The translations under genes were made by a program, and so were the position numbers. A stretch of DNA of 7,246 nucleotides, taken from assembly GCF_003334765.1 (NCBI RefSeq), contig NZ_QOWT01000061.1. One strand, written 5' to 3'. This document shows positions 5,410 to 6,532 of this stretch, piece by piece. Origin of the DNA: Escherichia coli. GTDB taxonomy: Bacteria > Pseudomonadota > Gammaproteobacteria > Enterobacterales > Enterobacteriaceae. The notes beneath the pieces are model-generated. The model searched no databases, had not been told where the DNA came from, and was given only the letters and a program-made list of their open reading frames with translations. Each line of letters starts with the position of its first letter. Positions within the stretch are counted from its first letter, which is position 1.

Positions 5410-6252
5410 CTATTGTGTTGTATACGAAGGCGATAGCATTTCCTGTTTCATTTGCCATTCAGGGGCGGTTCCTCGCCCCGCAAACCACACTTTCCCTTTT
5501 CCCGACTGGTTCAGTTCATCGAGTGTTTTCATTAACTTTTCACTGTTTTTACGGGGCTGGATTTCATCAAATAATCCCGGCTGCGCTATACCCGATGGTG
5601 TGAAATCAGCCAGCATGACTCCTGCCTTCATATAGCGGTACCCTTCACGCCAGACATGGTTTAAGGCTCTGCATGCGGCGGCAATAATGTCCCGGCTGTC
5701 CTGTGTGGGCAATGAAAGCTTTTCCACAGCGGCATTGCTGTAACAGGGTTCTTTTACTGCAAAGGGGGATGTCCGTACAAATGTCGTCACCTGCCGGCAA
5801 TACTGACGCTCCCCACGTAGTTTCTCTGCGGCCCGCTCAGCATACTGAACAACAGCCTGGTGCATGGCATCTTTGTCTGTGATTCGTTCACCAAAACTGC
5901 GACTACAGACAATCTGCTGTTTTGCCGGTGGTGCTTCTTCCAGGGATATGCAGGACTCGCCGTTGAGTTCGCGTACCGTACGCTCAAGAATGACGCTGAA
6001 GTTTTTCCGGATGAATGCCGTGTTAGCCTGCGCCAGCTGCAGTGCTGTGTTAATACCCAGCGCATTCAGCTTTTCCGTCAGTCTGCGTCCTACTCCCCAG
6101 ACCTCACCAACTGGCTGCAGCCCCAGTAGCTTCAAGATCCGATTACGGTTTTCTGCCGTCAGCGCGACCACACCGGAAAACTGTGGCCATTGCTTTGTTG
6201 CCCACTGTGCACTTTTAGCCAGCGTTTTTGTAGGCGCAATGAATATCAGCAG
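5410..6252 (-). pseudogene. umuC: 5'-truncated umuC/impB-family Y-family (Pol V) polymerase gene; about 150 N-terminal codons missing
   Basis: The ORF aligns with E. coli UmuC from about residue 145 to the C-terminus (IAPTKTLAK..., VWGVGRRL, ERTVREL, CSRSFGERIT, WQMKQEMLSPSYTT). Extending the frame upstream, similarity stops at about 6240-6250 and a stop codon lies at 6253-6255. No umuD-like gene is upstream. Confidence 0.8.
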
Positions 6253-6532
6253 TCAGGGAGACAACTTCATTCAGGTTGATTTCGACACGCCGTGGTGTCA
6301 GCCGGAAAGCGACGTTATTGCAGAATTAAGCCGCCGTTTCAGTTGCACGCTGGAGCACTGGTATGCCGAGCAGGGCTGCAATTTCTGTGGCTGGCAGTTG
6401 TATGAGCGTGGAGAGTTTGTTGATGTCCTGTGGGGAGAACTTGAATGGTCTTCCCCGACAGATGACGATGAGCTGCCGGAAGTCACCGGACCTGCGTGGA
6501 TAGTCTACAAGGTGGCGCATTACGGTGGATGA
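6239..6532 (+). CDS. Hypothetical 97-aa protein (orphan ORF; possibly a 5'-truncated gene remnant)
   Basis: The ORF lies in non-umuC DNA between the umuC breakpoint and the IS end. The product is Trp- and acid-rich with four Cys (C20, C36, C47, C50, including CNFC). The RBS is poor (AGGCG only 2-3 nt from the ATG), and the frame is open upstream only because it runs antisense through umuC. Confidence 0.4.
   Translation: MNISSQGDNFIQVDFDTPWCQPESDVIAELSRRFSCTLEHWYAEQGCNFCGWQLYERGEFVDVLWGELEWSSPTDDDELPEVTGPAWIVYKVAHYGG

Follow-up and report, generated by a model that had tools for sequence, protein, structure and literature searches.

The stretch of DNA analysed here, called the window in the following, is 7,246 nt long, and its features are collected in Table 1. 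The open reading frame (ORF) of main interest starts with ATG and has 97 codons plus a stop codon according to the ORF list, with the translation quoted in the preliminary description. Its product has cysteines at positions 20, 36, 47 and 50, contains 6 Trp among its 97 residues, and has 18 Asp plus Glu as compared to 4 Lys plus Arg, with a calculated pI of 4.05. In the sequence directly upstream, gtAGGcgcaATG, the sole Shine-Dalgarno-like element is an AGG located 4 nt 5′ of the ATG. The position, the length, the placement of the cysteines, the acidic and Trp-rich composition and the poor ribosome-binding site (RBS) are thus all as described previously. The frame is open further upstream, to 5864, corresponding to an ORF of 222 aa, in which the added stretch is antisense umuC.

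Table 1. Positions of the features in the window, with the assignments made for them.
Feature	Positions	Strand	Remarks
Terminal part of an IS3 copy	1-104	reverse	abuts vapC
Plasmid_stab_B ORF	4950-5378	+	142 aa on the window contig, 130 aa on the sister contigs and in RefSeq; the difference is a start-codon ambiguity overlapping the end of parM
umuC 3′ remnant	5410..6241	-	approximately codons 139-414 of 414; the intact umuC of pLAO63 is at L003:5806-7050 (-)
Junction-made ATG	6239..6241	+	A6239 from the umuC side only; T6240 and G6241 are microhomology; the parent codon is an internal GTG (Val)
DUF1281/Api92 3′ remnant	6239..6532	+	most of the DUF1281_C ferredoxin-like domain; from Pfam, PHROG and DNA identity
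Native DUF1281 downstream sequence	6533..6542	+	10 bp; plasmid F is identical through ...GGATGAAGTATGACG and then diverges (three-way alignment)
Spacer	6543..6576	.	34 bp; matches neither F-like sequence nor IS
Decayed IS3-family transposase remnant	6577..7246	-	runs to the contig end; chromosomal IS copies match only from ~6577

At the far left of the window, the RefSeq annotation of the identical junction reads 'IS3-like element IS3 family transposase' next to 'VapC'. This IS3/vapC junction is present in eleven complete genomes, and the umuC/DUF1281 deletion discussed below is found in none of the eleven. A search of the whole window against Rfam found no family.

We now turn our attention to the identity of the 97-aa ORF, which had been called an orphan that could not be placed in a family. 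This label has to be withdrawn, as residues 6-71 match positions 9-74 of the 88 positions of the Pfam model PF18406 (DUF1281_C, described as 'Ferredoxin-like domain in Api92-like protein') with an E-value of 3.4e-15 and 56.2 bits, which places the ORF in a named family with a solved structure. In addition, the ORF corresponds to positions 212-308 of the 308 positions of PHROG 37043, a family of unknown function. There was no NCBIfam match for the 97-aa ORF, the extended 222-aa frame or the full-length parent, and neither the fragment nor its full-length parent matched any family of the anti-phage defence collection PADLOC.

The same assignment is obtained at the DNA level. A megablast search with positions 6100-6700 of the window against PLSDB finds six E. 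coli plasmids with 100% identity over 6240-6700, and the matched stretch is annotated in these as 'DUF1281 domain-containing protein'. The intact gene on one of them, pE1246_1, is 903 nt long and encodes 300 aa (WP_077513943.1), and its stop codon is shared with the window ORF. From 6240 onwards, the window agrees at every base with codons 204-300 and the stop codon of the WP_077513943.1 gene, as carried by pE1246_1 and pLAO63. The earlier suggestion of a 3′ remnant from a longer gene is therefore correct, and the outcome that had been named as evidence against a separate gene, namely homologs that show the sequence to be just the C-terminal portion of a known protein, is exactly what is found.

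The intact parent consists of two Pfam domains, PF06924 (DUF1281) at residues 22-198 and DUF1281_C at 201-274. Compared to WP_077513943.1 (NZ_CP025574.1 and NZ_OP242283.1), which has the same downstream sequence and IS remnant as the window, the window lacks codons 1-203, that is, the entire PF06924 domain and the first 8 model positions of the C-domain. It is important to point out that, 8 codons before its annotated start, the parent locus has coding sequence for MPNWCSNR. The true start of the parent is probably located there, in agreement with the consensus of the family, the PHROG profile of 308 positions and the offset relative to Api92. The remnant thus comprises codons 204-300 of the annotated 300 aa, or 212-308 when counted from the MPNWC start.

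The PF06924 domain (about 177 residues) is not found by Pfam in the 97-aa ORF, its coding DNA being located inside a 1981-bp deletion, and nothing resembling the MPNWC(A/S)N segment is found upstream of 6239, where the sequence is antisense umuC. With 97 aa, the ORF is also much shorter than the full-length homologs of 301-336 aa. The N-domain, the N-terminal motif and the full length are missing because the parts encoding them have been deleted. The ORF is thus a piece of a DUF1281/Api92 family member, and not a complete member.

The origin of the fragment can be followed by comparison with pLAO63 (IncFIA/FIB/FII, with AAF/III fimbriae), which is the closest complete plasmid. It is 99.9% identical to positions 105-7246 of the window in two pieces, between which pLAO63 is longer by 1981 bp. 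The gene order in this part of pLAO63 is umuC (-), umuD (-), dinI-like (-) and DUF1281 (+) (locus L003, 5806-8909). By exact extension of the homology arms, the left one, which is antisense umuC, is perfect through 6241, while the right one, which is DUF1281, is perfect back to 6240. The ATG is thus located at the umuC breakpoint, as had been noted, and the overlap of the two arms is a 2-bp TG microhomology. The missing segment takes in umuD and the dinI-like gene completely, together with 413 nt from the 5′ end of umuC, codons 1-203 of DUF1281 and the intergenic region between the divergent genes. What is left of umuC is recognized on the sister contigs, where Pfam finds IMS_C/DUF4113 on a 253-aa ORF.

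The start codon itself is an accident of the junction, since an A from the umuC side precedes the TG of the parent GTG. Residue 1 of the remnant is accordingly Met, while the corresponding residue of WP_077513943.1 is Val. The direction of the event would be a deletion and not an insertion, because both flanking genes are truncated.

The most probable course of events would be as follows. The ancestor plasmid would have been similar to the AAF/III plasmids of enteroaggregative E. coli, pLAO63 and pE1246_1, its minus strand carrying umuC-umuD-dinI-like and its plus strand, divergently, an intact DUF1281 gene of 300 aa. A single deletion of 1981 bp, presumably by illegitimate recombination at the 2-bp TG microhomology, would then have joined the two truncated genes. 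It would also have taken the intergenic region in which the promoter of the DUF1281 gene is expected, no promoter being identified there. The 97 codons would still be open owing to the recency of the event, the DNA being 100% identical to the intact gene.

Another option considered was a deletion mediated by an IS element. This was rejected, as neither endpoint adjoins an IS end and the arms have just 2 bp in common.

As regards the plasmid umuDC genes, the lineage with the deletion is without umuD and the dinI-like gene, and its umuC has lost the catalytic N-terminal third, so that a translesion polymerase V module is no longer encoded by these plasmids.

On the right-hand side of the ORF, the preliminary description had placed an IS end. 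What is found there is a decayed IS3 remnant without a terminal inverted repeat, the TGAACCGCCCCGGG... of the chromosomal copy being absent, and homology to the IS does not extend up to the ORF (Table 1). In the remnant, an insertion of 4 bp near 6617 alters the C-terminus of orfB, which is also divided into the ORFs 6604..7041 and 7025..7243 by a 1-bp frameshift near 7040. RefSeq annotates the identical sequence as 'IS3 family transposase; frameshifted; incomplete; missing N-terminus'. The arrangement of spacer and IS3 remnant is older than the deletion and unrelated to it, because it is identical in plasmids with an intact DUF1281 gene.

Taken together, we consider it very probable that the ORF is an ordinary, recent pseudogene fragment left behind by deletion of the greater part of a DUF1281 gene. 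Such a fragment is most likely neither expressed nor functional, because the N-domain, the MPNWC segment, a usable RBS and a recognizable promoter are all missing. Consensus scans, on which the statements about expression signals are based, gave no promoter-like site in 5800-6700, and apart from the AGG in front of the ATG there is no promoter or RBS of the ORF's own. Furthermore, the fragment is 100% identical to the parent, and the open frame therefore reflects the recency of the event and not selection.

The alternative that survives best is that the fragment is expressed from the junction ATG by read-through from the parM/stbB operon, and acts as a stand-alone DUF1281_C protein with a residual or dominant-negative activity. 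This we regard as very unlikely, in spite of some points in its favour. The operon is located upstream on the same strand as the ORF, and there is no convincing terminator between the two, the terminator-like matches being at chance level. The ORF is also intact with an ATG start, and AlphaFold2 with the family alignment predicts the 97 aa alone to be a compact domain with a pLDDT of 92, a result that stems from the alignment and tells little about stability. Short natural members of the family do exist; however, these keep the N-terminal MPNWC segment that the fragment lacks. The RBS is weak and no promoter-like site is present, and the intactness of the ORF can be understood simply from the recent date of the deletion and the complete identity to the parent. 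Finally, the junction is confined to one clonal sequence type, and is spanned by no record among the 72,556 plasmids of PLSDB or the 5,426 complete E. coli genomes. We attach equally little weight to the broader proposal that read-through from parM/stbB and the junction ATG yield a DUF1281_C domain that keeps some activity of the parent or interferes with it, or else that the parent family has a role in plasmid establishment.

The preliminary description had also pointed to a possible metal-binding arrangement of the four cysteines, one pair of which forms a CxxC motif. To evaluate the conservation of these residues, 30 full-length homologs with 26-56% identity to the parent were aligned. Cys20 is a cysteine in 2 of the 30 homologs, Cys36 in 22, Cys47 in 11 and Cys50, which is part of an FCG motif, in 28. 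In Api92, the corresponding residues are Y, C, N and R, respectively. Two of the four cysteines, including one from the CxxC pair, are thus not conserved, and a four-Cys or CxxC site is not a property of the family, given the low counts for Cys20 and Cys47 and the replacement of Cys20, Cys47 and Cys50 in Api92. That the ORF would nevertheless be a small metal-binding protein using Cys20, Cys36, Cys47 and Cys50 is very unlikely, even if all four are present in the product and Cys50 is nearly invariant in its motif.

The same alignment has two nearly invariant cysteines. One is Cys5 in MPNWC, which is lost in the remnant, and the other is the FCG cysteine (residue 261 in the 308-aa numbering), which is not present in Api92. 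Pro296 is invariant in these homologs, and the HYGG C-terminus is conserved.

It is also necessary to consider that the umuC/DUF1281 junction could be an assembly chimera, with no true deletion behind it. In line with this scenario, the window is a short contig from a draft assembly with IS copies at its borders, and none of the complete plasmids searched has the junction. However, an exact look-up of the 97-aa protein shows that it is called on contigs of GCA_965137835.1, GCA_012531175.1 and GCA_003334765.1 and in Logan ERR271232, the contig of GCA_003334765.1 (QOWT01000061.1, 7246 bp) being the window itself. All four carriers have an identical 39-nt junction, and each is 100% identical to the window over the common stretch. 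Two of the four junction contigs run on into the agg3 chaperone-usher operon, and the junction is located in unique sequence and not in a repeat. An assembly error is unlikely because the same junction is obtained in four draft assemblies, and with the further arguments just given the chimera becomes a highly improbable explanation. The deletion is therefore a real feature of one lineage of enteroaggregative-type plasmids.

Finally, the opposite-strand ORF 6326..6616 (96 aa) is an open frame of similar length. That it is the conserved gene has practically no probability, since the minus-strand ORF has no NCBIfam match and the Pfam domain sits on the plus strand instead, the 5′ third of this ORF with the start region (6543-6616) is located in unassigned and IS-remnant sequence that is not in F, and the substitutions between the window and F, although a small sample, are 3 synonymous to 9 non-synonymous in the minus frame as compared to 6 to 6 in the plus frame.

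The consequences of the pseudogene interpretation are small. It removes a false orphan gene, the fragment being part of an already known gene family, and it gives a base-exact account of a 1981-bp deletion by which a single lineage of AAF/III enteroaggregative E. coli plasmids had both its plasmid umuDC/dinI-like module and its DUF1281 gene inactivated. A further lesson is that a deletion junction can make a start codon, such that a gene fragment resembles a complete small ORF; gene callers have called this fragment in four assemblies. The family from which it derives has a crystal structure and, for a fragment of the gene, several thousand matching plasmid records, yet no functional study in the literature searched.

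It remains to compare the fragment with the known members of the family. The structurally characterized one is Api92, from a pathogenicity island of Yersinia pseudotuberculosis (PDB 2IJR). This protein is full length, with both DUF1281 and DUF1281_C, while the window ORF is a fragment, and three of the four cysteines of the window ORF are absent from Api92. In the library covered by the literature search, there was no functional study of the DUF1281/Api92 family or of 2IJR.

A closer relative is the DUF1281 pseudogene of plasmid F (NC_002483.1, ~52.8-53.8 kb), with about 94.5% DNA identity to the window over 6240-6547. The two copies are broken in different ways. The F copy (locus L002, 2323-3293) is split by a frameshift into ORFs of 183 and 145 aa, whereas the window copy has lost its 5′ part by deletion. 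Their surroundings also differ, as the F copy has neither umuDC next to it nor an IS remnant behind it. In F, the gene is located between sopB and the DNA methylase/antirestriction block, at the far end of the leading region. This location is a lead for the parent family only, which has nearly invariant cysteines in MPNWC and FCG and may have an unrecognized role in plasmid establishment.

The family is very common on F-like plasmids, and the gene fragment matched several thousand plasmid records. The protein library contains dozens of 85-96%-identical fragments and chimeras of the gene. The DUF1281 gene is thus inactivated often, because the F copy is frameshifted and many such fragments and chimeras exist.

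The last comparison concerns the two small proteins P0103 (118 aa) and P0150 (135 aa), which are built around the same C-terminal ferredoxin-like domain as the window fragment. The consensus of the 30 homologs starts with MPNWCANRL, in which C5 and N7 are at 90% or more, and in the two small proteins the N-terminal MPNWCANR strand/helix is fused directly to the C-domain, while the window fragment has no such segment. Both lack the helical middle domain of roughly 180 residues, which suggests that this domain has been inserted into a single ferredoxin-like fold. According to the predicted model, residues 4-12 of the N-terminus are in a strand and residues 15-26 in a helix, and the C-domain alone has just one helix. 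The N-terminal beta-alpha unit would thus be the part that completes the ferredoxin-like domain.
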